Numbered from the whole stretch's first letter, positions 1,023-57,185 are shown. The stretch is DNA of 62,794 bases, filler included, from an uncultured Synergistales bacterium (GCA_937897575.1; 7 parts of 7 records of this genome joined end to end with filler, not necessarily neighbours in it); one strand, 5' to 3'. Made by a program: numbers and translations. The notes: generated by a model from the sequence alone, not told the origin.

Positions 1023-1838
1023 TTACCCTTCCTTTCGAAAAAAGTCGTGCGCCTCGTCCACCACGGCCTCCGGGTCCGGAACGCTCCGTTCCTTTCCGGA
1101 GCCGTCGGGGAGGAGGTGCAGAAGAAATTCGATGTTCCCCTTCGGGCCCGTCACCGGTGAAAAGGAGAGGCCGACGGGCTTGAGCCCCGTCTCCGCCGAA
1201 CAGAAGGCAAGGATCTCCCGGAGGACGGTCCGGTGGTCCTCCTTCGCCCGGACGACGCCCCCCTTCCCCACCCGGCCCTTGCCGATCTCGAACTGCGGTT
1301 TCACGAGCACGATGCTCTCGCCCTCGGGGGCCAGAATGGACCGGATGGCCGGCAGCACCAGCTTCAGCGAGATGAAGGAGAGGTCCGCCACGACCAGGCC
1401 GACGGCGCCGCCGAAGTCCTCGGGCGTTACGGCCCGGGCGTTCACCCGCTCCATGACCGTTACCCTCGGGTCCTGACGGAGCATCCACGCGAGCTGCCCG
1501 TACCCCACGTCCACGGCCCACACCCGCCGGGCCCCCCTTTCGAGAAGCACCTGGGTGAACCCGCCCGTGGACGCGCCGAGGTCCACGCAGTCCCTGCCCT
1601 CCGGCGACGTGCCGAAGACCTCGAGCCCCTTCAGGAGCTTGTGGGCCCCCCTGCTCACCCACCGGTCCCCGTCGCCCCGGACCGTCACCGAGGACGAGGA
1701 GGAGACCATGGTCCCGCTCTTCTCCACCCTCATGCCGTCGGCGAAGACCCGTCCCGCCGCGACGAGGGCCTGGGCCTTCGCCCTGGAGTCGGCGAGGCCC
1801 TCAGAGACCAGTCGTCTGTCGATCCGTTCCCGCTGCAT
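1023..1838 (-). CDS. tlyA: TlyA family rRNA (cytidine-2'-O)-methyltransferase
   Basis: Start reset to ATG 1838 (MQRERIDRRLV). S4 domain, VSRGAHKL, DLGASTGGFT, DVGYGQL, KPQFE, GPKGNIEFL. Confidence 0.95.
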   Translation of the reverse strand: MQRERIDRRLVSEGLADSRAKAQALVAAGRVFADGMRVEKSGTMVSSSSSVTVRGDGDRWVSRGAHKLLKGLEVFGTSPEGRDCVDLGASTGGFTQVLLERGARRVWAVDVGYGQLAWMLRQDPRVTVMERVNARAVTPEDFGGAVGLVVADLSFISLKLVLPAIRSILAPEGESIVLVKPQFEIGKGRVGKGGVVRAKEDHRTVLREILAFCSAETGLKPVGLSFSPVTGPKGNIEFLLHLLPDGSGKERSVPDPEAVVDEAHDFFRKEG

Positions 1839-3687
1839 GGCGCACATACCGCTCGACGATCCCCTCGGGCGTGAGGGCGCAGGCCCGCCTCTGCTCCTCC
1901 ACCGTCCCCTGGGGGACGAACCGGGCGGGGACGCCTGCGCAGGAGACCCGGCAGGGGTGATCCATTGTCTGGGCGAAGGCGGAGAGGGCCTCGCCGATCC
2001 CCCCGGCCGCATACCCCTCCTCGACGGCCACGGCGAAGGAGTGCCCCTCGAGCATTGCACGCAGGGTCCGGGCCGGAAAGGGTTGGATGCAGGCGAGGTC
2101 CACGACCGTCGGCACCGGAAGGTTGGAGCGTTCGGCGAGGGCTCTGGCCTCGAGCGCGAGGGGCACGCCTCCGCCGTAGCCGAAGAGGATCCACTCCGTG
2201 CCCTTCGTCAGGATCTCCGGCTCGAGGGGCGACGTCCGTGAAGTGCCCTCCACCCCCGGGATCTCCGCCGGGGCCTCGCCCCGCGGAAAGCGAAGGAGCG
2301 CGGGCGTCCCCTGGTGCAGGGCGAAGCGGAAGAGCGCCTCCAAGGTGCGCTCGTCCCGGGGAGCCGCCACGGTGAGGTTCGGAACGGCACGGCACCACGG
2401 AATGTCGAAGAGCCCCTGGTGGGTCTCCCCGTCCTCTCCGACGAAGCCCGCCCTGTCCACGGCGAAGAGGACGGGAAGGTTCTGGAGCGCCACGTCGTGG
2501 ACGAGCTGGTCCATGGCCCTCTGAAGGAAGGTGGAGTAGATGAAGACGATGGGTCTGAGCCCTCCGGCGGCCATCCCGGCCGCCATGGTGACCATGTGCC
2601 CCTCCTCGATGCCCACGTCGAAGATCCTGTCGGGGAATCGGTCGGCGAAGGCCTCGAGCTTGCACCCGCACTTCATGGCCGCCGTGAGGCAGACGACCCT
2701 CCGGTCCTCCTCGGCGAGACGCAGGGCGCCCAGCGCTGCCGAATCGCTCCACGTCCGGGGCGCTGCCTCGGTGCAGGGGCTCTCCCGGCGGGGCGAGACG
2801 CCGTGATAGCCCGTGGGGTTCTCCTCGGCCTCCCTCCACCCCTTGCCCTTGACGGTGACGACGTGGAGAAGCACGGGGCGGTCGTACCGCTTCGCGAGCT
2901 CGAAGACGCCGTCGAGCTCCTGGACGTTGTGTCCGTCGAAGGGCCCCCAGTAGTTGATCCCCATCTCGTCGAAGATGGTGGGCAGCCGCACGATGGACTT
3001 GAGGTGATCCTTTATCCTGCTCAGCAGGTTCTCCACGACCTCGCCCCTGGGAAAGGAGGAGCAGGAATCTTTGATGGCCTTCTTGAGCCAGTTGTACGTG
3101 CTGTTGGCGCTGAGGCGGGCGAGGTGCGTGGCGAAGCCGCCGATCCTCGGGCTGATGGACATGGTGTTGTCGTTGAGCACGTAGATGACCTTGGTCCCCG
3201 CATCCTTCGTGTAGTTGAGGGCCTCGAAGGAGAGCCCGTTCAGGAGGGCGGCGTCCCCGATCACGGCCACGGTGTGGTGCTTCTGGCCCAACATGTCCCT
3301 GGCCTTGGCGTACCCGAGGACGGCCGAGAGGGAGGTGCTGCTGTGCCCCGTGTCGAAGTGGTCGAAGGGGCTCTCCCGTCTCTTCGGAAAGCCGCTGATG
3401 CCGCCGGACCGGCGGAGGGTCGCGAAGGCGTCCTTCCGCCCCGTGAGGATCTTGTAGGCGTAGGTCTGATGCCCCACGTCGAAGACGATGCGGTCCACCT
3501 CCGGGTCGAAGCTGCGCAGCAGGGACAGCGTGAGCTCCACCGTCCCGAGGGAGGAGGCGAGGTGGCCTCCGTTCGTCAGGACCACGGAGACGATGTGCCC
3601 CCGGATATCCCGGGCGAGCTCCGTGAGCTCCTCGGGCGAGAGCTTCCCTATGTCCTTGTACCCTTCGATCCGGTCGAGCAGGGACAT
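1801..3687 (-). CDS. dxs: 1-deoxy-D-xylulose-5-phosphate synthase
   Basis: GGHLASSLG, DVGHQTY, TGHSSTS, GDAAL..N TPP motif, DVGIEE, DRAG..GEDGETHQG. Confidence 0.98.
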   Translation of the reverse strand: MSLLDRIEGYKDIGKLSPEELTELARDIRGHIVSVVLTNGGHLASSLGTVELTLSLLRSFDPEVDRIVFDVGHQTYAYKILTGRKDAFATLRRSGGISGFPKRRESPFDHFDTGHSSTSLSAVLGYAKARDMLGQKHHTVAVIGDAALLNGLSFEALNYTKDAGTKVIYVLNDNTMSISPRIGGFATHLARLSANSTYNWLKKAIKDSCSSFPRGEVVENLLSRIKDHLKSIVRLPTIFDEMGINYWGPFDGHNVQELDGVFELAKRYDRPVLLHVVTVKGKGWREAEENPTGYHGVSPRRESPCTEAAPRTWSDSAALGALRLAEEDRRVVCLTAAMKCGCKLEAFADRFPDRIFDVGIEEGHMVTMAAGMAAGGLRPIVFIYSTFLQRAMDQLVHDVALQNLPVLFAVDRAGFVGEDGETHQGLFDIPWCRAVPNLTVAAPRDERTLEALFRFALHQGTPALLRFPRGEAPAEIPGVEGTSRTSPLEPEILTKGTEWILFGYGGGVPLALEARALAERSNLPVPTVVDLACIQPFPARTLRAMLEGHSFAVAVEEGYAAGGIGEALSAFAQTMDHPCRVSCAGVPARFVPQGTVEEQRRACALTPEGIVERYVRHAAGTDRQTTGL

Positions 3688-6403: not shown

Positions 6404-6503
6404 NNNNNNNNNNNNNNNNNNNNNNNNNNNNNNNNNNNNNNNNNNNNTTAATTAATTAANNNNNNNNNNNNNNNNNNNNNNNNNNNNNNNNNNNNNNNNN
6501 NNN
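6404..6503. other. Artificial contig linker (N44-TTAATTAATTAA-N44); identical linkers at 8597-8696, 10446-10545, 27071-27170, 49500-49599, 57086-57185
   Basis: Six identical 100-nt spacers with stops in all six frames; genes are cut on both sides. Confidence 0.98.
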
Positions 6504-8596: not shown

Positions 8597-8727
8597 NNNN
8601 NNNNNNNNNNNNNNNNNNNNNNNNNNNNNNNNNNNNNNNNTTAATTAATTAANNNNNNNNNNNNNNNNNNNNNNNNNNNNNNNNNNNNNNNNNNNNATGA
8701 TAATTTTATAGTTGAAGGTAAAATATA

Positions 8728-10134: not shown

Positions 10135-10545
10135 ACAGCTCGGAGCGCTCGATCGCTTCTGAAAGACGGTCGAGAAGCGTATTTTTCGAAGTGATGGAGA
10201 AAAACGACCGACGGCAGATGTCTGAAGCCATCGCTCCGCATCTGGCATAGCCATCTCGCCGGAGAAAATGACAGGAAGCCTCTGCTAGAGGCATCCGGGC
10301 ATGTACTCTCTGCCTTTTACGCACGATGAAGTCGCCGCACCTCTGCGGCCTTTTTGATCCGAGGACAGGCCGTACGTGGGCGGTCGGAGCGCGTGATACG
10401 CCCTCTGCCTCCGAATCCTTCTCGCCGGGATATCCCTGAGAAGCCNNNNNNNNNNNNNNNNNNNNNNNNNNNNNNNNNNNNNNNNNNNNTTAATTAATTA
10501 ANNNNNNNNNNNNNNNNNNNNNNNNNNNNNNNNNNNNNNNNNNNN

Positions 10546-27070: not shown

Positions 27071-27170
27071 NNNNNNNNNNNNNNNNNNNNNNNNNNNNNN
27101 NNNNNNNNNNNNNNTTAATTAATTAANNNNNNNNNNNNNNNNNNNNNNNNNNNNNNNNNNNNNNNNNNNN

Positions 27171-32246: not shown

Positions 32247-33251
32247 ATGGGAAAGCAAGGTGCTATGATTAAAAAAATTGCGAGAATAACTTGTCTATTG
32301 ATGACTTTGCTCTTGGTTTTTATCAGTGCTCCCTGCTGGGCGGACTATCCTTCCAAGAACATGTCGATCATTGTCCCCACGGGAGAAGGGGGGGCCATGG
32401 ACAGGGTCATTCGAGCCGTTACTAATGTATGGAGAGACCATCTCGGAGTGAACTTTCAAAGCACGTTCCACCCCGGTGCGTCCGGAGAGGTGGGGTACAT
32501 GTTTTTCTGTAAGCGCCCTGCAGATGGCCATACGCTCCTTGCGGGGAATATCGCTCCGGAGATGATGATGTATGTGCTCCAGGAACCGGATTTCAAGTTC
32601 CCGGACGATTTCGTTTATTTCGCAAGCATGGATTCAGACCCGGCAGTACTTTGGGTGCGCAAGAACGGCCCGATTCAATCCATACAGGATCTTGTAGCCG
32701 AGGGCAAGAAAAGACCCGTGAATATTGCGACCAGCCGTTTCCCGCACCCGTCAACCCTTGCCGTTTTGCTTCTTGGAGAGGCGACCGGCGCGCAATTCAA
32801 TATTATTCCGTACGGAGGCGGGAATCCGGCTCGGACAGCGGGGCTCACCGGAGAAGTGGATGCCGTGACCACGTTCCTTTCCTCCTCTTTGGATTTTACT
32901 TCTGAGATCAACTTTATCGTAATGTTCCAAAACGAAAATAAATGGAAGGATATTTCGCAGCATGCCCCTACTCCCCAGGAAGCGTTGGGGGTGACGATTC
33001 CGGAGTTCGGAGGTAACCGTGCATGGGCGGTATCCAGAGAATTTAAGGACAAGAATCCTGCGGAATATGAAAAACTGGTCTCTTCGTTTAAAAGCGCTTT
33101 TGAGGACCCGAAATTGCAGGAAGAATGGAAGAAGGTAGGGATGGATCCCCAGTTTCTGGAATTTAGAGACGAGGAGGAGAGCACGAAGTTGGCATTCGAG
33201 ATAATCGAAACGGCAAAGAAGTATCAAGAAATCCTGAAAGGGAAAAAATAG
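32247..33251 (+). CDS. Tripartite tricarboxylate transporter substrate-binding protein (TctC/Bug)
   Basis: Signal peptide, YPSK...IVPTGEGGAMD, PGASG, PADGHTL, IPYGGG. Confidence 0.92.
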   Translation: MGKQGAMIKKIARITCLLMTLLLVFISAPCWADYPSKNMSIIVPTGEGGAMDRVIRAVTNVWRDHLGVNFQSTFHPGASGEVGYMFFCKRPADGHTLLAGNIAPEMMMYVLQEPDFKFPDDFVYFASMDSDPAVLWVRKNGPIQSIQDLVAEGKKRPVNIATSRFPHPSTLAVLLLGEATGAQFNIIPYGGGNPARTAGLTGEVDAVTTFLSSSLDFTSEINFIVMFQNENKWKDISQHAPTPQEALGVTIPEFGGNRAWAVSREFKDKNPAEYEKLVSSFKSAFEDPKLQEEWKKVGMDPQFLEFRDEEESTKLAFEIIETAKKYQEILKGKK

Positions 33252-33394
33252 CGCAGCAGAGGGTATGGACAGCAATCTATAATCACCTCGATATAAAAAA
33301 AGAATTCCGATAACCGGAACGATGGCGCACAATAGCACGGATGCGTACCCTTCTATCGTTCCGGTTTCACATTGAAGTACGCAAGAGGGAGGAA

Positions 33395-33892
33395 ATGATG
33401 GCCAAGAAATCAGTGCAATGGGCACCAGGTGACCTTCTCGTCCCCGGATTGGGAATGCTCCTCGGATTGTATTATTTATATACAGTAAGAGGGTTACCGT
33501 TTCTGGCCCAATTTTATGGAGGGGCATTGAGTATAATCTGTATACTGCTTTTCCTTGTGGCGTTTTTCATGGTTCTGTTAAAAAATAAGGGTAAGTTTCT
33601 CTCTGTAAAACTCACTGATAAATTAGCGTCTATTGCAGTCACTTATAAAAACCTCATTATACTCACAGCTTTCACCGCGCTTTTCATAGCGTTGATATCG
33701 ATCGTCGGATACTTCGTAGCAAGTTTCTTCTTCGTGGTCATAACCACCAGCTATCTTCGATATGGCGATCTTAAGAAAAACATGAAGGTCGGCCTTATCG
33801 TCACGCTCGTTGGTTTTGTGCTCTTCTTCCTTTTCTTAAAGGTAGACCTGCCCCTTGATTTTATTACGGCTAAAGTGAAGGGGGTTTTTTAA
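33395..33892 (+). CDS. TctB family small membrane subunit
   Basis: Four to five hydrophobic helices, ends FLKVDLP; lies between TctC and TctA. Confidence 0.85.
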   Translation: MMAKKSVQWAPGDLLVPGLGMLLGLYYLYTVRGLPFLAQFYGGALSIICILLFLVAFFMVLLKNKGKFLSVKLTDKLASIAVTYKNLIILTAFTALFIALISIVGYFVASFFFVVITTSYLRYGDLKKNMKVGLIVTLVGFVLFFLFLKVDLPLDFITAKVKGVF

Positions 33893-33893
33893 G

Positions 33894-35393
33894 ATGTGGG
33901 AGATGACGCTCAATTCTCTGAGCCAGGTGATGAGCTCTTGGTGGCTCATCCCGTTGGGTGTTGCACTGGGAATTTTCGTAGGAGCTGTCCCTGGGTTTAG
34001 TTCGACGAATGTGCTCATTATTCTCCTCCCCTTTACTCTCGGAATGGAAACCGGCCCGGCCATGGCCTTCATGTCCAGCCTCTACTCCGGGTCGCATATG
34101 GGCGGCTCAATTCCCGCTGTCCTTTTCAATGTGCCAGGAACGGGCGCTGCAGCCGCAACCTGCTTTGACGGCTACCCCATGACCCAACAGGGGAGAGGGC
34201 AAGAAGCTCTCGCGATCGCTTTCGTCGCATCCGCCATTGGGGGCCTTTTTACCACGGTTATCACTTATGGCGCTCTTCCCTACCTCTCCAAGATGGTGTA
34301 TTACTTCGGGAGCATCGAGAATTTCATAATAATTCTTTTCGGTGTCGCCCTTATTGGTCAAATTACAGGAGAGAGCGCTTTGAAGGGGCTGATGGCAGGG
34401 ATGTTCGGCCTTCTTCTCGGAGCAATCGGGTATGACCATGTATATAGTGTTCCCCGAGCGACATTCGATATCGTGTACCTTTTTGACGGAGTGCCGCGTA
34501 TTCCTGCCATAGTGGGTCTTTTCGCGATTTCAGAGGCGATGAGGATGATAGAAAAGGATACCATCATCGATGCCTCTCAGCTTTCAACCTCTCTCAAAGA
34601 GGGATGGCAGGGCACCTTGAGAGGTATAAGAGTTTCTTTTCAAAAGATCGGAGCGATTATCAGGTCGTCTCTGATCGGTTTCGTGGTGGGAATCATCCCT
34701 GGTGCTGGCGCCACCATAGGAAGCTTCGTAAGTTATCAGCAAGCCATGGTCTTTTCAAAGGATAAAGATCAGTTTGGCAAAGGGGCTCCAGAGGGCGTCA
34801 TTGCGTCCGAAGCCGCAAACAACGGGCTCACAAGCGGAACGCTCATTCCTCTTTTGACGCTCGGGATCCCAGGCGGTGGCACTGCCGCAGTTATGCTCAT
34901 CGTGCTTCAGACTCATGGAGTCCCCGTAGGCCCCAGATTGTTTCAGGTGATGCCTCATCTGGCCTATGAAGTCGTGATGGCCATGCTGTTGGCTTATATC
35001 GTCATGGTTATCATCGGTGTTCCCCTAGCCAAGTCTCTTGCAAGAATGTCCTTTTTCCCAACCAAGGCATTGGCTCCGACGATCATCTCTTTTACGCTCA
35101 TCGGATCTTTTGTCGCAAGAGGTTATCTCTTTGACATGTGGGTCGCCCTGTTCTTCGGAGTGCTTGGGTATATTTTAAAACGCACGGGATACTCCCCTCA
35201 CGCCATCCTTATAGGGGTAATCCTTGGTCCAATGGCAGAACAGTATTTTCTGCGATCGATGCTTCTTGGCAATGGGAATCTGTCGATTCTTTTCTCCCGG
35301 CCGCTGGGAAATTTCCTCTGGGTTCTCCTGGTGATGTCCATGGTATTGCCGACATTGACGAATTTCCTACGTTCCAGGAGGGCATCTCGGTAA
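33894..35393 (+). CDS. TctA family permease
   Basis: VGAVPG, GGSIPAVLFNVPGT, DGYPM, GIIPGAG, EAANN, LTLGIPG. Confidence 0.95.
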   Translation: MWEMTLNSLSQVMSSWWLIPLGVALGIFVGAVPGFSSTNVLIILLPFTLGMETGPAMAFMSSLYSGSHMGGSIPAVLFNVPGTGAAAATCFDGYPMTQQGRGQEALAIAFVASAIGGLFTTVITYGALPYLSKMVYYFGSIENFIIILFGVALIGQITGESALKGLMAGMFGLLLGAIGYDHVYSVPRATFDIVYLFDGVPRIPAIVGLFAISEAMRMIEKDTIIDASQLSTSLKEGWQGTLRGIRVSFQKIGAIIRSSLIGFVVGIIPGAGATIGSFVSYQQAMVFSKDKDQFGKGAPEGVIASEAANNGLTSGTLIPLLTLGIPGGGTAAVMLIVLQTHGVPVGPRLFQVMPHLAYEVVMAMLLAYIVMVIIGVPLAKSLARMSFFPTKALAPTIISFTLIGSFVARGYLFDMWVALFFGVLGYILKRTGYSPHAILIGVILGPMAEQYFLRSMLLGNGNLSILFSRPLGNFLWVLLVMSMVLPTLTNFLRSRRASR

Positions 35394-35432
35394 CAGATAG
35401 GAACTATAGATTGTCTTTTAGGAGGAGGTCAT

Positions 35433-36584
35433 ATGTTACTTAGTGATCATAGAGAACACAGGAAAAATGTTCGTCTGATCAGCAGAACGAAGATAGCCTC
35501 AGTCGGAGCGGGGCAGATTATTGTCGACAAGGGAACGGCGTATATCGCTCATTTATGCGACGAAGGGGTCACGTTGGTAGACGTGCGAAACCCGTATGCA
35601 CCCAAAGTGCTTAGTAAGATTGGAGCGCCTCTGAAAGGGCATTCCCATAAAGTTCAAGTCAGCGGAAATATTATGATAGTCAATAACGAGCGGTATAAAC
35701 AGTATCAGCCGTGGGTCGCCGGCGTTCGGATCTACGACGTATCGTCTCGTGACAACCCCACTGAGATTGGTTTTTTCGAAACAAAAGGCAAGGGTGTCCA
35801 TCGTATGTGGTTCGTCGACGGTCAATTCGCTCATATAACCGCTACGGCGGAGGGGTATACGGATCAGATATATATGGTTCTCGATCTTAGCGACCCCCGT
35901 AACCCTCAAGAATATTCCCGGTGGTGGATGCCGGGAATGTGGCATGGCGGGGGCGAACAACCTTCGTGGCCAGATGGAGTTCGCGTCCGGGCTCATGGGC
36001 CGGCCTACGTTTGCGGCAATAGAGTGTATTTGGGTTGGACGGACGGAGGGTTCACTATACTTGATATCACTGATCTCAAGAACCCGCAATTGATAGCGAA
36101 GTTTAATTGCTGTCCTCCCTTCGGTGGACTTACGCACACGGTTTTGCCTTTACCGCAAAGAGAGTTGTTGGTGGTGTCCGACGAAGCCCATGCCGATCTC
36201 TGCGATGAGCCCGAGAAATACGTATGGCTTTTTGATGTGAGGAACGAAAGAAACCCCATTCCTGTTTCCACGGTGCAGGTGGAGGATAGGGGATTTTGCG
36301 AAAAAGGAGGACGATTCGGACCTCATAATGTGCATGAAAATCGTCCTGGAAGCTTAATTGATGATCAGCTTATCTATATCGCCTATTTCAATGGAGGATT
36401 ACGTATCGTCGACATCGCCAATAAATATCGCCCCGAAGAGGTTGGGTATTTTATTCCCGAATGTCCTGCGGGACAAAAAGCCGTCCAGACCAATGACGTT
36501 TTTGTGGATTCTGACGGTTTGATTTATATCGTGGACCGCCTTGACGGGACAATGTATGTGCTTGAATACACGGGACCGCGATAA
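35433..36584 (+). CDS. LVIVD-repeat beta-propeller protein, His-rich, no signal peptide
   Basis: Repeats GVTLVDVRNP, GVRIYDVS, MVLDLSDP, GFTILDITD, GLRIVDIA; AGGAGG RBS. Confidence 0.85.
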   Translation: MLLSDHREHRKNVRLISRTKIASVGAGQIIVDKGTAYIAHLCDEGVTLVDVRNPYAPKVLSKIGAPLKGHSHKVQVSGNIMIVNNERYKQYQPWVAGVRIYDVSSRDNPTEIGFFETKGKGVHRMWFVDGQFAHITATAEGYTDQIYMVLDLSDPRNPQEYSRWWMPGMWHGGGEQPSWPDGVRVRAHGPAYVCGNRVYLGWTDGGFTILDITDLKNPQLIAKFNCCPPFGGLTHTVLPLPQRELLVVSDEAHADLCDEPEKYVWLFDVRNERNPIPVSTVQVEDRGFCEKGGRFGPHNVHENRPGSLIDDQLIYIAYFNGGLRIVDIANKYRPEEVGYFIPECPAGQKAVQTNDVFVDSDGLIYIVDRLDGTMYVLEYTGPR

Positions 36585-40090: not shown

Positions 40091-40229
40091 CCGGTTACGT
40101 GAGGGAGTTAGAAAACGGGAGACCAAGAGTAAAAATCCACTTTGGTTAATGCTCGTGTAGCAAGCTGGACAGTGACATAGTTATGAAAAGAAGACTTGCG
40201 AAAACGGATACAGAAACATTATCACAGAG

Positions 40230-40780
40230 AGGACGCACGGAAAAGACCGGATACGATAACGGTAGCTGCCTCGAACCCGGGGTCTATCACGCGCTTGGGC
40301 CTCCAGCTCCTCGAGGTGAAAGAGGACGTGAAGTTCAAGATCGCGAGCCAATCGGGCGGAGAATCCAAAGGACCTTCCCTTGTCGCGGGAGGACATGTGG
40401 ATGCGTGCCAGGCTGCCCCGGTTACAGCTAAATCCCTTTACGAGGCCGGCGAGATCCGACCCCTGGGCGTGATGAGCGAGGTCCGTGTCGAAGCCTTCCC
40501 GGACATCCCGACCTTCATGGAACAGGGTTACGATGTGGTCATGCACAACACGCGGCAGATCCTGGCCCCAAAAGGGACGCCCAAAGAAGTGGTGGACAAG
40601 TTGTACAGTGCTTTCAAGGCGGCTACCGAAAGTGAGACCTTCAAGAGGTTTATGAACGAATCCGGCTCGATGATCCTGAGCTGGAACTCCGAGGAGTCCA
40701 AAGAGTTTTTGACCAAACAGGATGCCCAGTTCAAGGACCTATTGCAGCAGGTTGGGCTGTATAAAGAGGTCAGCAAGTAG
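40230..40780 (+). pseudogene. 5'-truncated TctC/Bug solute-binding protein
   Basis: C-terminal half only (EDARKRPDTIT, RPLGV..R...FPDIPTFMEQGYDV, APKGTPKEVV); no signal peptide or N-lobe. Confidence 0.8.
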
Positions 40781-41455: not shown

Positions 41456-42772
41456 TTGAAATACAGCATCCCATATGGTGACGACGTTATTTCGTTTGAT
41501 ACGTTCGCAAACAAGGTGCTTTTCGAGGGGGATATGGTCAGCATCCCTCCTGTTTGTGATTTTAAAAGTGAGCTTCTCCGGTCGCTGGACTCCCCGATCG
41601 CCTCGGTCTCTCTTGCGACCCTTGCCAAGGGAAAGAGGGACATTCTTATTCTCGTGGAGGACAATACGCGGGACACTCCGCTGACGGATATTCTGCCCGT
41701 TGTCACGGACTACCTCAAGGCTTCCGGTGTACCTGCAAGCGCCATACGGTTCATGATCGCCCACGGGACCCACCGTCTGATGACCGACGAAGAGATCCGT
41801 AAAAAACTCGGGGATTTCATCGTCGACAACTTCACCGTCTATCAGCACGAGGCAGCAGACGCAAATCAGATGGAGGACCTCGGCGAAATCGAAATGGAGG
41901 GATACAACCTCCCCGTCCGAATCAATCGCCGCGCATTGGAGGCCGATCTTCTCATAGGCATAGGCAATATCATCCCCCACAGCGACGCGGGGTTTTCCGG
42001 AGGCGCGAAGATCGTCCAGCCCGGAATATGTGACTTCGTGACGACGCAGGCGACCCACAGAAGCGCGGGTTTTTGCCCCGACATCCCTCTCGGGATGCTT
42101 GACGGCAACCCATGCCGCGCGGGAATCGACGCCGTCGGTCGTGTGGCGAAGCTTGCTTTCATCATCAACGTGGTAAAAAATTGCGATGGTGAAGTGGCGG
42201 GTTTTTTCTGCGGCGATTATATGAAAGCGCACCGCGCAGGAGTGGAGCTCTCGCGAAAATCGTACAGCGTGGAGCTCGATGAACTCGCTGACATAGTGAT
42301 AGTCAGCTCCTCGCCCGCCGATATGGATTACTGGCAGGGTATCAAAGGGCTGACGTCCGCCTACTTTGCTGTGAAGCAGGGCGGTGCTGTGATTCTTGCC
42401 GCACCGTGCTATGAGGGGTTGGCCCATAACCACCCGCTGTACGCCCACTGGCTGGCACAACCGACGCATGTTCTTGTGGAGGCGATACAGGCCGCCTCTC
42501 CCCATGATCTGGAGACGGATATTATCTCCGCCGTGGTTGCACTCGGCAGTCGCCGCACTCTTGAAAGAGCCGAAGTGTACATGGTCAGTGACGGCCTTTC
42601 GGATCAGGAGATACGAGACATGGGGTATACTCCGACGGCTACCGTACAGGAGGCCTTGGATGCGGCGCTGACAAAACGCCCGGAGGCCACCATCGGCATT
42701 CTGCCTCTTGGCGGCATTTCCTTGCCTTTTTTGGCGAAGAACAGTATTCTTAAAAATAATTGTGGGGACTAA
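41456..42772 (+). CDS. larA: LarA family nickel-pincer 2-hydroxyacid racemase/epimerase (copy 1)
   Basis: AGGAGG + TTG start; EDNTR, HGTHR, PHSDAGFSGGAK, GGAVILAAPCYEG. Confidence 0.92.
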   Translation: MKYSIPYGDDVISFDTFANKVLFEGDMVSIPPVCDFKSELLRSLDSPIASVSLATLAKGKRDILILVEDNTRDTPLTDILPVVTDYLKASGVPASAIRFMIAHGTHRLMTDEEIRKKLGDFIVDNFTVYQHEAADANQMEDLGEIEMEGYNLPVRINRRALEADLLIGIGNIIPHSDAGFSGGAKIVQPGICDFVTTQATHRSAGFCPDIPLGMLDGNPCRAGIDAVGRVAKLAFIINVVKNCDGEVAGFFCGDYMKAHRAGVELSRKSYSVELDELADIVIVSSSPADMDYWQGIKGLTSAYFAVKQGGAVILAAPCYEGLAHNHPLYAHWLAQPTHVLVEAIQAASPHDLETDIISAVVALGSRRTLERAEVYMVSDGLSDQEIRDMGYTPTATVQEALDAALTKRPEATIGILPLGGISLPFLAKNSILKNNCGD

Positions 42773-43366
42773 AATTTTCAGTAGCGAGCTGGAATGTCGA
42801 TTCATCAGGAGTTCCAGGTTTTGTGGAGTCTTGACAGCGGGAAATTATCGCAAGTACTGCGGTAAGACGAGGACGATTTCCTGGTTGCATGCTGGCAGCC
42901 ATGAGGAAACTCCGCCGCGAAAAGTTTCTCCCGAATGTCACCCTGAACTGCAAGCCTTCGATACTTTGGTTTCTGTTCTATCGCACAATGGTTTGTCTCG
43001 TGGGAACTGTCAATTTTTAACCGACCGATGATATTCGGGGTGCTGGTCAAACAGGATTCCTCTCCTCTTGAGGGAGTTTTTTAATTTCTATGAGATGTAA
43101 TTCATGGAGAATCCTTGCGAACGAAGTGTATTTTTTCTCGAGTCATTGAACAGCCGAGATAATTTCTGCTGCGCACCAGGACGACGTTTTTCGATATTTT
43201 CCTTTTGAGCGCACCGCCGATCGATCATCGAAGGCCGCTTCTCTCGGCACGATGGGCCACGTTTTCGGTGTGCGATACGTCAGAGGACCATAGAAGGGTA
43301 CCATGCGGAGCTGTTGGAATACCCGACGATGGCTCATGAAAATAACGCAGAGAAAGGCGGTTTGAA

Positions 43367-44584
43367 ATGTACCTATCGGATGAAGAGAAACGAATACTTG
43401 ACGGTGCGCAAGGAGCGGGGAAACAGAAGGCCATGGAATTGCTCTATGCCCTTGGCCTTACCTTCGACGCGGAGAAGCTCATTCCCGTGAAGCGAGCCCA
43501 TGTGGCGCTCAGCGGGCAGGAGGGCGATACCTACTGGTGCGAACTCCTTCTCAACGGCGGCGCAACCTGTGTTGTTCCGCCGACGACGAACCCCTACTGG
43601 GACACGGCGTACCTGACGAAGTTCTTCGACGTGACGAAAGAAGAGCTCGATCTTGCAGAGCGCACGGGCGACGTCTACCGGCGCATCGGTGCGAAGCTGA
43701 CCTACCACTGTGCCCCAGGGCTCGGCACGAACGTCCCCTTCTTCGGTGAACACGTCGCCTTTTCGGAGTCCAGCGCTACTCCCTACGTCAACGGGGCGCT
43801 CGGCGCGCGCTCAAACCGCGAGTCCTCCGTGAGCGCCCTCGCGGCGGCGGTCATAGGCAAGACGCCCTATTACGGCTACCATCTCGACGAGTACCGGCTG
43901 GGAGACTTCCTCATCGACGTGGATGCGGATGTGAAAGACTGTTACGACTGGGGGATACTCGGTTATTGCGTGGGCAAGATAGCGGGGTCCCGCAACCCCG
44001 TTCTCCGCTTCAAAAAGGCAGTTCTTCCCACGGCGGAGGATTTCCTCTACTTTGGAGCTGAAGCGGCCACGAGCGGGGCTGTCGCCATGTACCACATGGT
44101 GGGCATCACTCCGGAGGCTCCTACGATTCAGGCGGCCTTCGGAGGCAAGCAAGTACCCTCCGCGGAGTATGTGATCACCGACAAAGAGCTTAAAGCCGAG
44201 GAGAACTCCCTGACACCCGCGACGGGCAAGATAAACCTCGTTATGCTCGGTTGCCCGCACTACACCTATAATCAGCTTCTGGAGGTCGAAAAACTTTTTG
44301 CGGGCAGGCATGTATCCCATGACACCGCCTTCTGGATACTGGCGGCTGCCGACGCGGTGGAGCTCGCGGAACGATCCTACCTGCGCCAACGCCTTGAATT
44401 GCTCGGAGTGCGCATGGTGGGCAACACCTGCATCGACGAACCCTGTTGGAAGTCCTTCGAGGGGGCTCTCGGCGTGACGGACTCGCCGAAATGCGCCTAT
44501 TACAGAGAACGTCGGGGACAGCCCTTCGCGATCCGAAGGCTCTCCGTGTGCGTCGAAGCTGCGATTAAAGGGAGGCTCGACTGA
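43367..44584 (+). CDS. Aconitase X catalytic (large) subunit
   Basis: MYLSDEEKRILDG, TTNP, HCAP, SESSA, LGARSNRE, YHMVGITPEA, LGCPH, NTC, TDSPK. Confidence 0.93.
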   Translation: MYLSDEEKRILDGAQGAGKQKAMELLYALGLTFDAEKLIPVKRAHVALSGQEGDTYWCELLLNGGATCVVPPTTNPYWDTAYLTKFFDVTKEELDLAERTGDVYRRIGAKLTYHCAPGLGTNVPFFGEHVAFSESSATPYVNGALGARSNRESSVSALAAAVIGKTPYYGYHLDEYRLGDFLIDVDADVKDCYDWGILGYCVGKIAGSRNPVLRFKKAVLPTAEDFLYFGAEAATSGAVAMYHMVGITPEAPTIQAAFGGKQVPSAEYVITDKELKAEENSLTPATGKINLVMLGCPHYTYNQLLEVEKLFAGRHVSHDTAFWILAAADAVELAERSYLRQRLELLGVRMVGNTCIDEPCWKSFEGALGVTDSPKCAYYRERRGQPFAIRRLSVCVEAAIKGRLD

Positions 44585-45018
44585 TGGCCGACAACATGAA
44601 GGTGTACAAGTGCCGCTCCATAGTGCGCGGAAGCGGCTCAGGCGAAGCTGTGGTCTCAAGGGATGCCATGTGTTTCTATCTCATCGACCCCGCCACCGGC
44701 ACGGTGATCGAGAGAAACCACGCGATACAGGGGAAGAGTGTGACGGGGAAGGTGCTCGTGGTCCAGTCGGGGAAAGGGAGCTCCGTTGTTCAGGTGGATG
44801 GGTTCTACCAGCTTTGGGTCAAGAACAATCTGCCGAGCGCCATCATCGTCAAGGAGGCGGAGCCGGTCATCGTCTCCTCCGCGGTCGTAGTGGGACTCAC
44901 CATGGTGGATCGTCTCGAGGAGGATCCTTTTGAGATTATCGCGGACGGGGACTACGTGGAAGTGGATGCTGACTCTCAAGAGGTACGGGTGTGGAAAGGG
45001 GGAAAATCTACGGACTGA
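44584..45018 (+). CDS. Aconitase X swivel (small) subunit, DUF126
   Basis: GSGSGEAVVS, IDPATGTV, GKSVTGKVL, GKGSS catalytic Ser motif; coupled to large subunit. Confidence 0.93.
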   Translation: MADNMKVYKCRSIVRGSGSGEAVVSRDAMCFYLIDPATGTVIERNHAIQGKSVTGKVLVVQSGKGSSVVQVDGFYQLWVKNNLPSAIIVKEAEPVIVSSAVVVGLTMVDRLEEDPFEIIADGDYVEVDADSQEVRVWKGGKSTD

Positions 45019-45076
45019 ACTTTGCAGTGTTTCTGCGTACATGTTTCCACGTGACAAAAACTAAGGAGGGAAAAGG

Positions 45077-46060
45077 ATGAAGAAGATTCTATCGGCAGTT
45101 GTATTCCTGGCAATCATGGCGGCAGGCGCGGCGTTCGCCGCTCCCGAGTACACCATTAAAGTCGGCTACATCGGTTCCGAGAGTCACCCCACCATGAAGG
45201 CCATGCAGGTCTTCGCCCAGGATGTGGAGACCGGTTCAAGCGGAAAGATCAAGGTGGAGCTCTACCCGAACGCGCAGCTCGGCGGCGACCGCGAGCTGGT
45301 CGAAGGGGTCCAGCTGGGGACCATCCAGATGGCCATTCCCTCCACGTCCGCTCTTGCGGGATTCGATAAGAGAATCCAGGTTCTCGACCTGCCGTACCTC
45401 TTCACCACGAGAGAAGCCGCTTTCGAGGCTGTTGACGGCGAGCTCGGGGAGATGCTCAACTCGTATCTCGCCAAGAAGGGGTTCGAAGTACTCGGATATC
45501 AGGAGAACGGTTTCCGTCATGTGACGAACAGCAAGCAGCCCATCAAAACCCCGGCGGACCTCAAGGGGCTCAAGATCCGTACCATGGAGAACCCCATGCA
45601 CCTCGCTTTCTTCAAGGAGCTTGGCGCGAACCCCACTCCCATGAGCTGGGGCGAACTCTACACGGCGCTGCAGCAGAAGACGGTGGACGCTCAGGAGAAC
45701 CCCTACGCCATGATCGACGACGGCAAGTTCTATGAAGTCCAGAAGTACGTCTCCGAGACCGGCCACGTCTTCTCCTATGAAATTCTCATCGCGAACAAGA
45801 AGTTCATGGAGAAGCTTCCGGAAGACCTCCGGGCCCTTGTTGTCAACGAAGCCCGAAAGGCCATAATGACCCAGCGCAGCAGCATGGAGAAGGAAGAGGC
45901 CGCGTTCAAGGCGAAGGTCATCGAGGCCGGACTCGAGGCGAACGATCTTACCGCTGAGGACAAAAAGCCTTTCGTCGAGGCCACGAAAAAGGTGTACTCT
46001 CAGTTCGAGGGAGACCTTGGAACGGAGATTATGGACATCGTAAAGAGAGTTCAGAAGTAA
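45077..46060 (+). CDS. dctP: TRAP substrate-binding protein DctP
   Basis: Signal peptide, YPNAQLGGD, ENGFRH, GLKIRTM, ELYTALQ..TVDAQENP. Confidence 0.95.
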   Translation: MKKILSAVVFLAIMAAGAAFAAPEYTIKVGYIGSESHPTMKAMQVFAQDVETGSSGKIKVELYPNAQLGGDRELVEGVQLGTIQMAIPSTSALAGFDKRIQVLDLPYLFTTREAAFEAVDGELGEMLNSYLAKKGFEVLGYQENGFRHVTNSKQPIKTPADLKGLKIRTMENPMHLAFFKELGANPTPMSWGELYTALQQKTVDAQENPYAMIDDGKFYEVQKYVSETGHVFSYEILIANKKFMEKLPEDLRALVVNEARKAIMTQRSSMEKEEAAFKAKVIEAGLEANDLTAEDKKPFVEATKKVYSQFEGDLGTEIMDIVKRVQK

Positions 46061-46083
46061 CTTTTTTGAGATGGAACATGGAC

Positions 46084-46109
46084 GGCGCGTCCCCGCAAGG
46101 GGACGCGCC
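46084..46109 (+). terminator. Perfect 11-bp hairpin with GCAA tetraloop between dctP and dctQ
   Basis: GGCGCGTCCCC-GCAA-GGGGACGCGCC with no downstream U-tract. Confidence 0.65.
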
Positions 46110-46143
46110 ATTATGAATGTCGCAACAGGAGGTTGTCATCGCA

Positions 46144-46629
46144 ATGACCATCAAGAAATTCCTGAATAATTTCGAGGAGTATTTTTGTGTCTGGACTATG
46201 GCCATTATGACCGTTCTGGTCTTCATCCAAGTCGTCATGAGATATGTCTTCTCGAACTCCCTGTCCTGGAGCGAGGAGCTCGCGCGCTTCATTTTTCTCT
46301 GGCTTTCCTGGATCGGAGCGAGTTACGCCGTGAAGGAACGCAGCCATTTTCGCGTTGAGATGTTCGCCAATATGATCAAAGGTCCGAACCGCAAGTACTT
46401 CGAGTACGGTATTCTTGCGGTCTGGTTTGTCTTCAGTTTCATCCTTACATGGCTCGGGACCAAACTCGTTCTTTTTATCTATGACACGGGGCAAGCTTCC
46501 GCCGCCATGGACATCCCCATGACGTGGCCCTACGCTTCGGTACCCGTCGGATGCGCACTTATGTGCATCCGTCTCCTTATCGAGGCGTACACAATATTCA
46601 AAAGCAAGCCTGCCGACTTCGCGAAGTAG
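46144..46629 (+). CDS. dctQ: TRAP small permease DctQ
   Basis: QVVMRY, WSEELAR, HFRVE; AGGAGG upstream of ATG 46144. Confidence 0.93.
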   Translation: MTIKKFLNNFEEYFCVWTMAIMTVLVFIQVVMRYVFSNSLSWSEELARFIFLWLSWIGASYAVKERSHFRVEMFANMIKGPNRKYFEYGILAVWFVFSFILTWLGTKLVLFIYDTGQASAAMDIPMTWPYASVPVGCALMCIRLLIEAYTIFKSKPADFAK

Positions 46630-46656
46630 CAAGGAAGAATTGGAGGATATAGACAA

Positions 46657-47937
46657 ATGGAGGCAGTTATTCTCTTCTCTCTGCTCATTGTGACTATAGG
46701 ACTCAGCATTCCCATCGGGATCACCCTGGGGCTCTCTACGGGTATTGCGATGTGGCTCACATCGGACATCCCCATGACGATGCTCGCACAGAAATCGGTA
46801 ACGGGGCTCGATTCATTTCCTCTCCTCGCTATTCCGTTCTTCATTCTCGCGGGAGCACTCATGTGCAACGGAGGCATCTCCCGACGCCTCGTCAACCTCG
46901 CCGAGAGCCTCGTGGGCTATATAACGGGCGGCCTCGCCATGGTCACCGTGCTCGCCTGCATGTTCTTTGCCGCGATCTCCGGCTCGGGACCCGCCACCGT
47001 GTCGGCCATCGGTTCCTTTATGATCCCCTCCATGAAAGAGCGGAAGTACGATGCGGGCTTCGCCGCGGCGATCACGGCGGCGGCGGGGACCATCGGGGTC
47101 ATCATCCCGCCCTCGATACCTTTTGTCATCTACTGCATCGTCGCCCAGTGCTCCATCGGAGACATGTTCATCGCAGGAATCATCCCGGGTATTATGATCG
47201 GCGTCGCTCTCATGCTTGTCTGCTACTTCACGGCGAAGAAGCACAACTATGTAAGCGTTTCCGAACGACCGAAGTTTGCCACGGTGTGGGTCGCTTTCAA
47301 GGAGGCTTTCTGGGCTCTGTTGGTCCCCGTCATCATTCTCGGTGGCATCTATGGCGGAATCTTTACGCCCACCGAAGCGGCGGTTGTAGCCGTCGTGTAC
47401 TCCATAATAATCGGCAAGTTTATCTATAAAGAACTGGACGGCAAGACAATCTACGAGTGTCTGCGCACGACAGGACTTATCAATGGAGCGACGGAGTTCA
47501 TGATCGGTCTTTCCATGGCATTCGCGAGCTATCTTGCCATGGCTCAGATACCGGTTCATATTGCCTCATGGATGATGGGTCTGGCTGACAGTCCTTTCAT
47601 CCTGATGCTGGCGATCAATATTTTTCTGCTCATCCTTGGGTGTTTCGTGGATAACATCGCTGCAGTCATCATTCTCACACCGATACTGCTGCCGGTAGTG
47701 AAGTCCATAGGCATCGACCCTATCCACTTCGGGCTGATAGTCACGGTGAACCTTGCCTGCGGTTTTATCTCGCCGCCCTACGGGATAAACCTCTTCGTAG
47801 CGTCGGCGATATCAGGAGAGAGTATAGAGCGTATCTCGCGAGCTATACTTCCCGCTTTTCTTGCCATGGTGGTTTGTTTGTTCATCTTCACGTATTTCCC
47901 TGTTTTCAGTTTGGGGCTGCTTAATCTCTTGAGATAG
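46657..47937 (+). CDS. dctM: TRAP large permease DctM
   Basis: LLAIPFFILAG, ISGSGPA, IIPPSI, FTPTEA, PPYGINLF. Confidence 0.96.
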   Translation: MEAVILFSLLIVTIGLSIPIGITLGLSTGIAMWLTSDIPMTMLAQKSVTGLDSFPLLAIPFFILAGALMCNGGISRRLVNLAESLVGYITGGLAMVTVLACMFFAAISGSGPATVSAIGSFMIPSMKERKYDAGFAAAITAAAGTIGVIIPPSIPFVIYCIVAQCSIGDMFIAGIIPGIMIGVALMLVCYFTAKKHNYVSVSERPKFATVWVAFKEAFWALLVPVIILGGIYGGIFTPTEAAVVAVVYSIIIGKFIYKELDGKTIYECLRTTGLINGATEFMIGLSMAFASYLAMAQIPVHIASWMMGLADSPFILMLAINIFLLILGCFVDNIAAVIILTPILLPVVKSIGIDPIHFGLIVTVNLACGFISPPYGINLFVASAISGESIERISRAILPAFLAMVVCLFIFTYFPVFSLGLLNLLR

Positions 47938-49460: not shown

Positions 49461-49694
49461 GGGTGTTTTCTGCGAGGTATTGCCTTTTGATACGCCGGTN
49501 NNNNNNNNNNNNNNNNNNNNNNNNNNNNNNNNNNNNNNNNNNNTTAATTAATTAANNNNNNNNNNNNNNNNNNNNNNNNNNNNNNNNNNNNNNNNNNNNC
49601 TATATTGCACAGAATTCTTTGTACAGGGAGCCGATGAAAACTTGACTATTCAGCCTTCTGAAACAGTCGCTCGTACGTCATGCTCCGGCGCCTG

Positions 49695-55422: not shown

Positions 55423-56685
55423 TCACTCTACAACAGGCAGCACGATCCCTCCCTGAGGGATGACGTAGGACGTGAAGTCCTCGCCGTACTTCTTCCTGAG
55501 CTTCGTCAGGATCTCTTCGAAGTCCTCCACCTTCTCGCAGAACATGAGCCGGCTGTCCTCCGCCCCCGACCTGGACCAGAGCATGACGGAGCACTCCTTC
55601 GCCAGAGAGGCGAGGTAGAAGACTTTGTGGGCCCCGAAGCGGAAGTCCGCGTTGAAGGCCGCGATGGCACCGTCGGGCCCCAGGTCCCGTTTCGCCCACT
55701 CCTCGAAGACCGGGTGGCCGTAGCCCTCGGCCAGTTCGGCGAAGAAGACGATGGTGCCTCCGGGCCGGACGGCCCGCGAGCCCATGTAGAGGGCCTTGTG
55801 GGCCTGGTACATGTTGATGTCCTTCGGAAAACCGCCGGCGGAGAGAAAGACCACGTCCGCCTGCTTCGCTATGGGGGCGAAGTTGTACTTCCGGAAGGTG
55901 GCGATGCCCTCCCGCCAGGCGTCGTAGAAGTGGCCGCCGACGATGCGGACGATGTGCTTCGCGCTGTCCGAGACGCAGTTCAGGATGAAGTGGAGCGGGC
56001 AGAGATCTCGCACGGCCTCCACCATCTCGTCGCTCAGGACGTTGCCGTCCACGACGCCGATCCCGACGCCCGGAGCGGTCATCATCCGGTGGTTCGCCAT
56101 GACCGTCTCCTTGCCCGCCACGCCGGGGAACACGCTCTTCCGCCCTCCGGCGAAGCCCGCGTAGTAGTGGAGCAGGACCTCGCCGATCGCGATCCGGAGG
56201 TCCGCCTCGGCCACGGTCCTGTTTACGAGAAAGTGATTGCCCGTGGAGAGGGCTCCGAGGTCCACGAGGTCTTCCGCCTCGCAGTCGTGGTTCTCAACCC
56301 GGTACTTCTCGAAGACGGCCGACCCCACCGTTTCCCTCGTCTCGTCGTCGGACATGGGGCGGTGGGTGCCCGTCGCCACGACGACCGTCGTCCCGTCGAC
56401 GGGGACGCCCAGACGCTCGAGCTCCTCGAGGACCGGGGGCAGCATCTCGGCGCTGGGTGTGGACCGGGTCATGTCGTTCACGATGATGACGGCCCTCTTC
56501 GGCCTCATCTCCCGCACGATCTTCTCCAGGGACGGGCCCGCCGTGGGCGTCTTCAGCAACCGGGCCGACTCCGCCGCCAGGTCGGCGACAGGTTCGCCCC
56601 CCTTCGGCTCGAGCACCGCCAGAACGTTCCTATCGGGGATGGAGAGCGTCAGCTCCTCTCTGCCCCAGCGCATCCTCGTCTCCAT
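55423..56685 (-). CDS. larA: LarA family nickel-pincer racemase/epimerase (copy 2)
   Basis: NDMTR, ATGTHR, HYYAGFAGGRKS, ANH, GGFPKDINMYQAHK, GAHK. Confidence 0.93.
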   Translation of the reverse strand: METRMRWGREELTLSIPDRNVLAVLEPKGGEPVADLAAESARLLKTPTAGPSLEKIVREMRPKRAVIIVNDMTRSTPSAEMLPPVLEELERLGVPVDGTTVVVATGTHRPMSDDETRETVGSAVFEKYRVENHDCEAEDLVDLGALSTGNHFLVNRTVAEADLRIAIGEVLLHYYAGFAGGRKSVFPGVAGKETVMANHRMMTAPGVGIGVVDGNVLSDEMVEAVRDLCPLHFILNCVSDSAKHIVRIVGGHFYDAWREGIATFRKYNFAPIAKQADVVFLSAGGFPKDINMYQAHKALYMGSRAVRPGGTIVFFAELAEGYGHPVFEEWAKRDLGPDGAIAAFNADFRFGAHKVFYLASLAKECSVMLWSRSGAEDSRLMFCEKVEDFEEILTKLRKKYGEDFTSYVIPQGGIVLPVVE

Positions 56686-57085: not shown

Positions 57086-57185
57086 NNNNNNNNNNNNNNN
57101 NNNNNNNNNNNNNNNNNNNNNNNNNNNNNTTAATTAATTAANNNNNNNNNNNNNNNNNNNNNNNNNNNNNNNNNNNNNNNNNNNN

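Follow-up and report, generated by a model that had tools for sequence, protein, structure and literature searches.

What organic acid passes through a pathway assembled from a nickel-pincer racemase, an aconitase X and a dedicated importer? The question is posed by a six-gene cluster of an uncultured Synergistales bacterium (GCA_937897575.1), located in a 62,794-nt stretch of DNA, the window, to which all positions refer unless a contig or locus is named. The cluster encodes, in order, a homolog of the lactate racemase LarA (LarAH), the large and small subunits of an aconitase X (AcnX), and the DctP, DctQ and DctM components of a tripartite ATP-independent periplasmic (TRAP) transporter. A first-pass annotation of the sequence had reported these genes as co-oriented, and all six indeed lie intact on the + strand at the coordinates then assigned. 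It had also proposed that they specify uptake, epimerization and dehydration of an organic acid by an undescribed pathway, an idea that would be refuted if AcnX belonged to a characterized clade and if larA were unlinked to it in other genomes. The opposite was found on both counts, which supports the proposal. We suggest that the module imports a 2-hydroxy acid, inverts it at C2 and dehydrates it; imidazole-lactate appears the likeliest substrate and urocanate the likeliest product, an assignment that we favor tentatively and with less than even confidence.

The catalytic large subunit of AcnX (43367-44584, +; 405 amino acids; PF04412, 2e-115) and its small swivel subunit (44584-45018, +; 144 amino acids; PF01989, 7.6e-24) are specified by adjacent genes, as expected for a heterodimeric type II aconitase X. 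The stop codon of the first gene overlaps the start codon of the second by one base (TGATG), and the small subunit appears to be translationally coupled to the large one. The nearest solved structure for the large subunit is that of T. kodakarensis AcnX (TkAcnX; 7cnr, 196 bits), followed by the A. tumefaciens hydroxyproline enzyme (AtAcnX) at 135 bits, and the small subunit matches 7cnr_B at 6.3e-20. Three cysteines, C115, C296 and C355, align with the cluster ligands Cys110, Cys283 and Cys342 of TkAcnX, bearing out the three Cys motifs recorded in the first-pass annotation, along with the variants HCAPG (at C115) and TDSPK (at K375). Likewise retained are E134-S135-S136, K375 and Y379, the counterparts of TkAcnX Glu129-Ser130-Ser131, Lys361 and Tyr365, whereas S66 of the small subunit, within GKGSSV, aligns with the GKGSTV motif that bears the catalytic Ser62. 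The numbering and residue roles for TkAcnX are those given by Watanabe et al. (2021; PMC8184944).

The residues that define the two characterized activities are absent. The phosphate-binding loop of TkAcnX is replaced by SGQEGDTYW, and of the landmarks of mevalonate-5-phosphate dehydratases (Gly48-Val49-Ser50, Asn53 and a UbiD/UbiX partner), Gly48 is aligned with a gap and Asn53 with a glutamate. For hydroxyproline enzymes, in which the landmarks are Asp203, Thr72, Trp35 and Ile206, the position of Asp203 is occupied by Ala47, Val68 of the small subunit stands at the Thr72/Val64 position, and the equivalog model NF051439 returns 204 bits against a cut-off of 700. As had been noted, neither a proline racemase nor a UbiD gene is adjacent; none occurs among the annotated open reading frames (ORFs) of the contig that carries the cluster. 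The dxs gene attributed to the organism is present (1801-3687, -), but on another contig. By its sequence, AcnX belongs among types IIc-IIf, uncharacterized subclasses in which the landmarks of either activity are missing (Watanabe et al., 2021; PMC8184944).

LarAH (41456-42772, +; Lar_N, 1.2e-46; LarA_C, 3.2e-12) comprises 438 amino acids from a TTG codon located 7 bases downstream of AGGAGG, with an alternative start at 41375. The LarA motif pointed out in the first-pass annotation is present (PHSDAGFSGGAK), as are equivalents of L. plantarum LarA Asp72, Arg75, His108, His174, Lys184, His200, Gln295 and Lys298. These include both catalytic histidines (His108 and His174), the residue to which the cofactor, nickel-pincer nucleotide (NPN), is covalently attached (Lys184) and the nickel ligand His200. 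Genes for cofactor biosynthesis are found in the genome: LarB (280 bits; cut-off 175), LarE (312 bits; cut-off 150) and LarC (PF01969, 443 bits). Nonetheless, LarAH falls below all six NCBIfam cut-offs for the LarA family, and its best match, malate racemase LarAH6, reaches 287 bits against 500.

The specificity positions of LarAH are similarly distinct. They hold Ser175, Asp176, Ala183 and Trp294, with small hydrophobic residues at 358/359; the register of this last pair may be off by one or two residues, as two alignments to PDB structures disagree there. Urdiain-Arraiza et al. (PMC11770544) used four positions to predict LarAH specificity: lactate racemases have Phe175, Phe176, Trp358 and Glu/Gln359, and malate racemases have His/Gln-Lys at 358/359. 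A lactate racemase was rejected given Ser175/Asp176, a 358 segment devoid of tryptophan and 265 bits against a cut-off of 460; the malate racemases LarAH5 and LarAH6 were rejected given a segment, DIISAVVALG, that has no His, Gln or Lys, and scores of 287 versus 500 and 238 versus 462 bits. The residues of LarAH are shared across its clade, which has Ser, Cys or Ala at 175 and Asp at 176. Asp176, Lys184 and His200 occur in 26 of 26 other clade sequences from Synergistota, Bacillota and Bacteroidota, Ala183 in 25 of 26 (Gly in L081), and Trp294 in all 25 that cover the column. Of the other full-length members, 22 of 23 carry every LarA catalytic residue, the exception being L023, with Pro at the His108 column; L016, L079 and L080 are ORF fragments in the alignment, with some catalytic columns gapped. 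LarAH is thus predicted to be a nickel-pincer 2-hydroxyacid racemase or epimerase lying outside the characterized groups. Neither protein, then, falls by sequence in a group of established function.

The genome encodes five LarA-family proteins in all. The copy at 55423-56685 (-) has H-Y-Y and R-K at the alignment columns to which the first-pass annotation had drawn attention, and carries the His-Lys pair of malate racemases. Of the remaining three, the gene on contig C143 shows the Phe-Phe/Trp-Gln pattern of lactate racemases, that on C5 has Glu-Phe at 175/176, and that on C78 is 40% identical to the type designated NPN isomerase group 22.

The transporter genes follow directly: dctP (45077-46060, +; PF03480, 7.3e-97) encodes a TRAP solute-binding protein with a hydrophobic, signal-like segment at its N terminus, dctQ (46117-46629, +; PF04290, 3.8e-36) the small permease, and dctM (46657-47937, +; PF06808, 2.6e-118) the large permease. 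DctP and DctM exceed the cut-offs of TIGR00787 (275 versus 175 bits) and TIGR00786 (440 versus 268 bits), respectively. The nearest solved relatives of DctP are the chains 4p9k, 4pdh, 4p47 and 8t9t (213-222 bits).

Is the association between these families conserved? An alignment of 18 homologs of the AcnX large subunit was scanned against one genome per GTDB species, metagenome-assembled genomes (MAGs) among them, and recovered 77 loci (given L numbers here) with 84 large-subunit genes of this subclass. A quick maximum-likelihood tree divides them into two clades (SH-aLRT 98 and 99): X1, whose 41 genes are at least 56% identical to that of the window and come almost exclusively from Synergistota, and X2, whose 43 genes are 39-47% identical to it. 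The three cysteines are invariant in 40 X1 rows; all 42 X2 rows have C115 and C296, and C355 is found in 38 of them, the other 4 having a gap there. The segment SGQEGDTYW is invariant in X1, and the pocket loop Q51-E52-x-D54, located at the phosphate site of TkAcnX, is common to both clades.

A gene of the LarAH clade lies within 3 kb of 23 of 41 X1 genes and 9 of 43 X2 genes; the 23 do not include L041, where it lies 3.1 kb away, across dctPQM. Any LarA-family gene is found at 31/41 X1 and 14/43 X2 genes, a D-2-hydroxyacid dehydrogenase (2HADH) at 3/41 and 23/43, and one or the other at 34/41 and 36/43, or 70 of the 84. DctP or DctM is encoded nearby in 27/41 and 7/43, and an NMT1-type ABC binding protein in 0/41 and 22/43. 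Where X1 loci have at least 3 kb of sequence on both sides, a partner enzyme is present in 21 of 23 and TRAP genes in 20 of 23. The AcnX of the window, itself a member of X1, falls in a tree group of 24 rows (support 100), and a LarAH-clade gene adjoins in all but five of these. Of 268 Synergistota genomes searched reciprocally with LarAH, 68 gave matches at E values up to 1e-60, the source genome included; among the best 29 LarAH loci, with the window's own excluded, AcnX is directly adjacent in 25, a contig edge intervenes in 2 and DctP is next in 2. The linkage of larA to acnX is therefore a recurrent property of these genomes.

The identity of the partner varies even among close relatives. 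AcnX orthologs that are 81-85% identical to that of the window are paired with one of three enzymes: L021 has a LarAH-clade gene and its sister L044 a 2HADH, and in L012, L013 and L020 the partner is an NPN isomerase of group 22 (510 bits; cut-off 400). A further AcnX clade uses a third LarA type. All of these interchangeable partners act on a 2-hydroxy or 2-oxo acid at its C2. Most simply read, this means that AcnX requires one enantiomer of a 2-hydroxy acid, produced either by racemization or by reduction of a keto acid. A separate arrangement was observed in an Ignavibacteriales MAG (L052:186-15500), where UbiD and UbiX genes flank a TAXI-TRAP transporter upstream of two LarA homologs, AcnX, HutU and FtcD; it echoes the archaeal order of AcnX followed by UbiD, and decarboxylation of an unsaturated acid formed by AcnX is a possibility there.

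The genes surrounding AcnX in other genomes point to a particular area of metabolism, the histidine-utilization (hut) pathway. A hutU, hutI, ftcD or hutF-like gene occurs within 10 kb of 41 of the 84 AcnX genes (10/41 in X1 and 31/43 in X2). X1 itself resides in hut clusters, at L030, L031, L033 and L035-L040; in L030, from a member of the Synergistaceae, a single co-oriented run reads GntR-X2-LarAH-Fhs-X1-DctPQM-HutU-HutI-cyclodeaminase-FtcD-aminotransferase. A common gene set made up of RpiR, an M20 amidohydrolase, a HutF-like deiminase, both AcnX subunits, 2HADH, an ABC transporter, HutU, HutI and HutD is found in Pectinatus, Propionispira, Megamonas, Faecalispora, Caproicibacter, Agrilactobacillus, Liquorilactobacillus and Bifidobacterium. 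In L071, HutI (454 versus 298 bits) and HutU (433 versus 375 bits) both pass their equivalog cut-offs.

Histidase (HutH), the enzyme that ordinarily supplies urocanate, is encoded inside only 7 of the 77 loci. When the whole genomes of 17 non-Synergistota carriers, some of them drafts or MAGs, were searched with Pfam, 11 yielded no histidase (L077, L060, L059, L073, L076, L083, L084, L085, L054, L075 and L063); it is present in L071, L082, L064, L069, L078 and L061, and in 4 of 4 Synergistota genomes tested. The source genome has hutU (contig C147), hutI and ftcD (contigs C169 and C11) and hutH, all away from the contig of the cluster. On C147 (7520-8542; locus L092), two neighboring ORFs hold the N-terminal and C-terminal domains of a single aspartate-semialdehyde-dehydrogenase-like gene, a split that reflects either a frameshift or an assembly error. 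Two unusual loci were also seen. In a Synergistales MAG (L036:11300-19586), a short-chain dehydrogenase/reductase (SDR), a histidinol-dehydrogenase-family gene, a sugar-type ABC transporter and an iron-dependent alcohol dehydrogenase (Fe-ADH) are positioned between AcnX and FtcD/HutI, and an imidazole alcohol or polyol may there be oxidized to the acid taken by AcnX. In an Aminobacteriaceae MAG (L026:3306-6099), the run GntR-X2-LarAH-X1-DctPQM has IlvD and HutH downstream, and immediately upstream of it are accessory genes of citrate lyase: citC, an acyl carrier protein (ACP) gene and a citX-citG fusion.

Because the AcnX subclass is tied to hut genes in other genomes, the substrate is more likely an imidazole-bearing hydroxy acid than a generic sugar acid. 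In many genomes AcnX and its C2-acting partner lie in operons that degrade urocanate yet carry no histidase, so the product of this pair should be urocanate. Imidazole-lactate is proposed because it is the sole compound that is both a 2-hydroxy acid and a single dehydration away from urocanate. In such a pathway, DctP would bind imidazole-lactate and DctQM would import it; LarAH would interconvert its D and L enantiomers via the keto acid, by the proton-coupled hydride transfer usual for such enzymes; the [4Fe-4S] AcnX heterodimer would eliminate water to give urocanate; and HutU, then HutI and FtcD, would carry urocanate on to glutamate. The acidic residues of both proteins (Asp176 of LarAH, and Glu52 and Asp54 of AcnX) would suit a protonated imidazole. 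Conversion of 2-hydroxyglutarate to glutaconate, 3-sulfolactate, carnitine, 3-hydroxyaspartate and the isomerization of cis-urocanate were also weighed, and were discarded because the chemistry or the residues did not fit. The substrate, direction and product thus named are deduced from gene context and chemistry. The broader proposition, that aconitase X with a nickel-pincer racemase (or with a D-2HADH acting on imidazole-pyruvate) constitutes a histidase-independent entry into the Hut pathway of reversed regiochemistry, is possible but rather doubtful.

Several observations weigh against imidazole-lactate. The most serious concerns the chemistry of AcnX: both characterized reactions abstract the C2 proton beside the carboxylate and then remove the 3-hydroxyl, according to Watanabe et al. 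(2021; PMC8184944). Imidazole-lactate has its hydroxyl on C2 and would need to lose a proton from C3, so by analogy with the known enzymes it would have to be bound in a flipped orientation, with the ring rather than the carboxylate stabilizing the carbanion. That the carboxylate-binding Ser/Ser/Lys set and the catalytic Ser have both been kept favors binding in the canonical mode. The nearest solved relatives of DctP presumably take small aliphatic hydroxy acids as ligands: D-erythronate, pantoate or isethionate. No hut gene is located on the cluster's own 22-kb contig, nor within 10 kb in 31 of 41 X1 loci, and the failure to find HutH in a carrier is not proof of its absence, since many of the genomes are drafts or MAGs. 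Finally, larAH is cut off from acnX by 594 bp containing a terminator-like hairpin, and no GntR/FCD regulator lies upstream, nor is a GntR remnant found in the window, unlike in related loci.

Since the regiochemistry of AcnX is the weak point of the imidazole-lactate proposal, two other substrates stay under consideration. The first, which is unlikely but deserves to be taken seriously, is a small acid of the polyhydroxy or dicarboxylic type with no relation to histidine, such as erythronate/threonate, glycerate, tartrate or 2,3-dihydroxybutyrate, the hut link then applying only to paralogs. LarAH would epimerize C2, and AcnX would remove the 3-hydroxyl to yield a 2-keto-3-deoxy acid or a central 2-oxo acid, which fits the canonical regiochemistry (PMC8184944). 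LarAHs are described as epimerizing 2,3-dihydroxybutyrates, glycerate and tartrate, and acidic pocket residues also bind sugar hydroxyls, as does Glu175 of gluconate epimerases (PMC11770544). The 31 of 41 X1 loci with no hut gene within 10 kb and the malate racemase as best model match of LarAH agree with such a substrate, as does an IlvD/Edd-family dehydratase gene beside GntR in 8 of 77 AcnX loci and 9 of 29 reciprocal LarAH loci. However, in none of the annotated loci is the module found together with an aldolase, a kinase or another sugar-acid gene, and LarAH has neither the His/Gln-Lys pair of malate racemases nor the E-V-A-H set of gluconate epimerases. Moreover, X1 and not X2 alone is present in hut clusters, the two clades share the same pocket loop, and the linkage to hut genes would be left unexplained.

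The second alternative, an improbable one, is imidazole-glycerate. LarAH would set the configuration at C2, and loss of the 3-hydroxyl in the canonical AcnX reaction would yield imidazole-pyruvate, which a transamination would convert to histidine for entry into the Hut pathway via histidase. This route accommodates the carboxylate pocket and the catalytic Ser as conserved here, the acidic loop being directed toward the C3 substituent, and finds some echo in gene context: aminotransferase genes in L013 and L030, the histidinol-dehydrogenase-like gene, SDR and Fe-ADH of L036, HutH adjacent in L026, L030, L031 and L033, and HutH in the source genome. It would reach a dead end in the 11 of 17 tested carriers in which HutH was not found, and where 2HADH is the alternative partner an unusual 3-hydroxy-2-oxo acid would be needed. 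We know of no natural source of imidazole-glycerate.

A different kind of explanation is that the genes do not form one working unit in the source genome, larAH having been uncoupled after lateral transfer or the contig being a chimera of assembly or binning. The window was made by joining at least seven contigs of a MAG (2.37 Mb, 173 contigs, 96% complete, 3.9% contaminated), with paired 44-N spacers between them (junctions at 6404-6503, 8597-8696, 10446-10545, 27071-27170, 49500-49599 and 57086-57185), and is not one stretch of chromosome; features on opposite sides of these spacers are thus not physically linked, and neither dxs nor the second LarA copy is linked to the cluster. The whole cluster resides within a single contig of approximately 22 kb (27171-49499). 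The spacer between larAH and acnX (42773-43366) is unusually long, at 594 bp compared with approximately 20-100 bp in relatives, and has a terminator-like hairpin at 43057-43075. The consensus scan that identified such sites returned 14 where 6.4 are expected, which makes it weak evidence. The spacers match no Rfam family at E values up to 1, the sole hit being a chance-level viral one inside acnX; they are not repeated in the genome, except for one short inverted match within the gap upstream, and their DNA has no homology in related loci. With this spacer, its hairpin and no upstream GntR/FCD gene, co-transcription of larAH with acnX-dctPQM is uncertain in this genome.

Base composition points to a foreign origin. 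GC at third codon positions (GC3) is 0.65-0.78 in the cluster versus 0.85-0.93 in other genes of the genome, the closest relatives of LarAH (78-80% identity) belong to another family, and orthologs occur in only 3 of 106 genomes of its own family; lateral acquisition is therefore the likeliest origin of the cluster. The atypical GC3, the distribution of relatives, the missing regulator, the long spacer with its terminator-like site and the contamination of the MAG speak for a broken or chimeric unit. Against it, all six genes are intact and retain their catalytic residues, their order and orientation are those of relatives, and the DNA is collinear with Cloacibacillus-type loci at 75-78% identity over acnX-dctM and approximately 70% over larAH, the spacers not matching. 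The 5′ genes of the contig, too, have the GC3 typical of the genome. We consider such a breakdown very unlikely. It is scarcely credible that AcnX has one of the two characterized activities, mevalonate-5-phosphate or hydroxyproline dehydration: the Pfam families are identical and TkAcnX, the nearest solved structure, is a mevalonate-5-phosphate enzyme, but the residues and gene context already described contradict it, from the low equivalog score and altered landmark residues to the presence of dxs, the want of UbiD on the contig and a separate AcnX, 28% identical, in a hydroxyproline context elsewhere in the genome.

That separate AcnX, also split into two subunits, is located on contig C58 (13900-25200; locus L091) after RpiR, two ornithine-cyclodeaminase/mu-crystallin genes and two DctPQM sets, and its module precedes an ethanolamine-utilization microcompartment operon. 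It likely represents a cis-3-hydroxyproline dehydratase module in its classic setting; its classification as an X2 paralog was rejected given 28-31% identity and its ornithine-cyclodeaminase-family neighbors.

The rest of the cluster's contig is occupied, in its 5′ part, by + strand genes for 2-oxoacid:ferredoxin oxidoreductase subunits, sucCD and a threonine-dehydratase-like PLP enzyme, then by a TctCBA transporter, an LVIVD-repeat protein, a TAXI-TRAP permease and binding protein, and a truncated TctC, after which larAH begins; a DUF4403 gene follows dctM on the opposite strand. The tricarboxylate-type TctC-TctB-TctA transporter and LVIVD-repeat genes (32247-36584) have a GC content of 0.42-0.52 and a GC3 of 0.50-0.58, far below the rest of the contig, and look like a separate, more recently acquired island beside the TAXI-TRAP genes. 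The TctC-family ORF at 40196-40780 covers only positions 100-274 of a 274-position profile, with stop codons in all three frames upstream. It is probably a pseudogene truncated at its 5′ end, and it borders the LarAH cluster on the left, in the place taken by GntR in relatives.

The gene families themselves are not new. What is new is an uncharacterized AcnX subclass and LarA clade, their conserved coupling, the swapping of partners and the link to hut operons that have no histidase. Our literature searches found no publication joining LarA with aconitase X, aconitase X with urocanate, or imidazole lactate with urocanate and a dehydratase; those on AcnX returned only the known hydroxyproline and mevalonate work and mentions in genomics studies, with nothing relevant under DUF521/DUF126. 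Two supplementary files of Desguin et al. (2020) do not contain COG1679, COG1786 or the word aconitase. With only two aconitase X activities known and a physiological role assigned to few LarA homologs, it is of interest that the module links both families in a conserved, transporter-equipped operon of dozens of Synergistota species, with a sister clade in bifidobacteria and in gut, beer-spoilage and fermented-beverage Firmicutes.

If the imidazole-lactate proposal is correct, it would account for hut operons without histidase and would provide a microbial sink for a metabolite that many host and fermentation metabolomes are reported to contain. Anaerobes could then scavenge imidazole-lactate, and Firmicutes devoid of HutH could degrade histidine. 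AcnX would have a third activity, LarA a new class of substrate, and an aconitase-type enzyme would activate the departing proton by means of a heteroaromatic ring rather than a carboxylate. Even with another substrate, the exchange of a nickel-pincer enzyme for an NAD-dependent dehydrogenase would serve as a clean natural experiment on the role of a LarA homolog in vivo.

How, then, does the module compare with systems already described? With the malate racemase Mar2/LarAH6 (6d6z) and the lactate racemase LarA (5huq), LarAH has in common both catalytic histidines, Lys184, His200, Arg75 and Gln295/Lys298, but its residues fit none of the LAR, MAR, HGR, GntE and HHR patterns set out by Urdiain-Arraiza et al. 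(PMC11770544). The likeness to HutH would be a functional analogy only: the module sits in hut operons without hutH and would similarly feed urocanate to HutU and HutI, yet the proteins are unrelated, and water would be taken from a hydroxy acid whereas HutH takes ammonia from an amino acid by means of its MIO cofactor. With the hydroxyproline enzymes, AcnX shares the superfamily fold and the Glu/Ser/Lys core, and bacterial type IIa is likewise split into two subunits (PMC8184944); here, the Asp203 position is Ala and all three [4Fe-4S]-type cysteines are kept. The type IIb enzymes of T. kodakarensis and A. pernix (7cnr and 7cns) also have two subunits, three cysteines, Glu-Ser-Ser, the equivalents of Lys361 and Tyr365, and the catalytic Ser. 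They differ from the AcnX studied here in that its phosphate loop is replaced, with Gly48 deleted and Asn53 changed to Glu, and in that its host is a bacterium with dxs, where no UbiD is adjacent and the partners are a LarA homolog and a TRAP transporter. Types IIc-IIf are described as split bacterial or archaeal AcnX proteins that carry neither set of landmark residues (PMC8184944), and the AcnX of the window fits that description.

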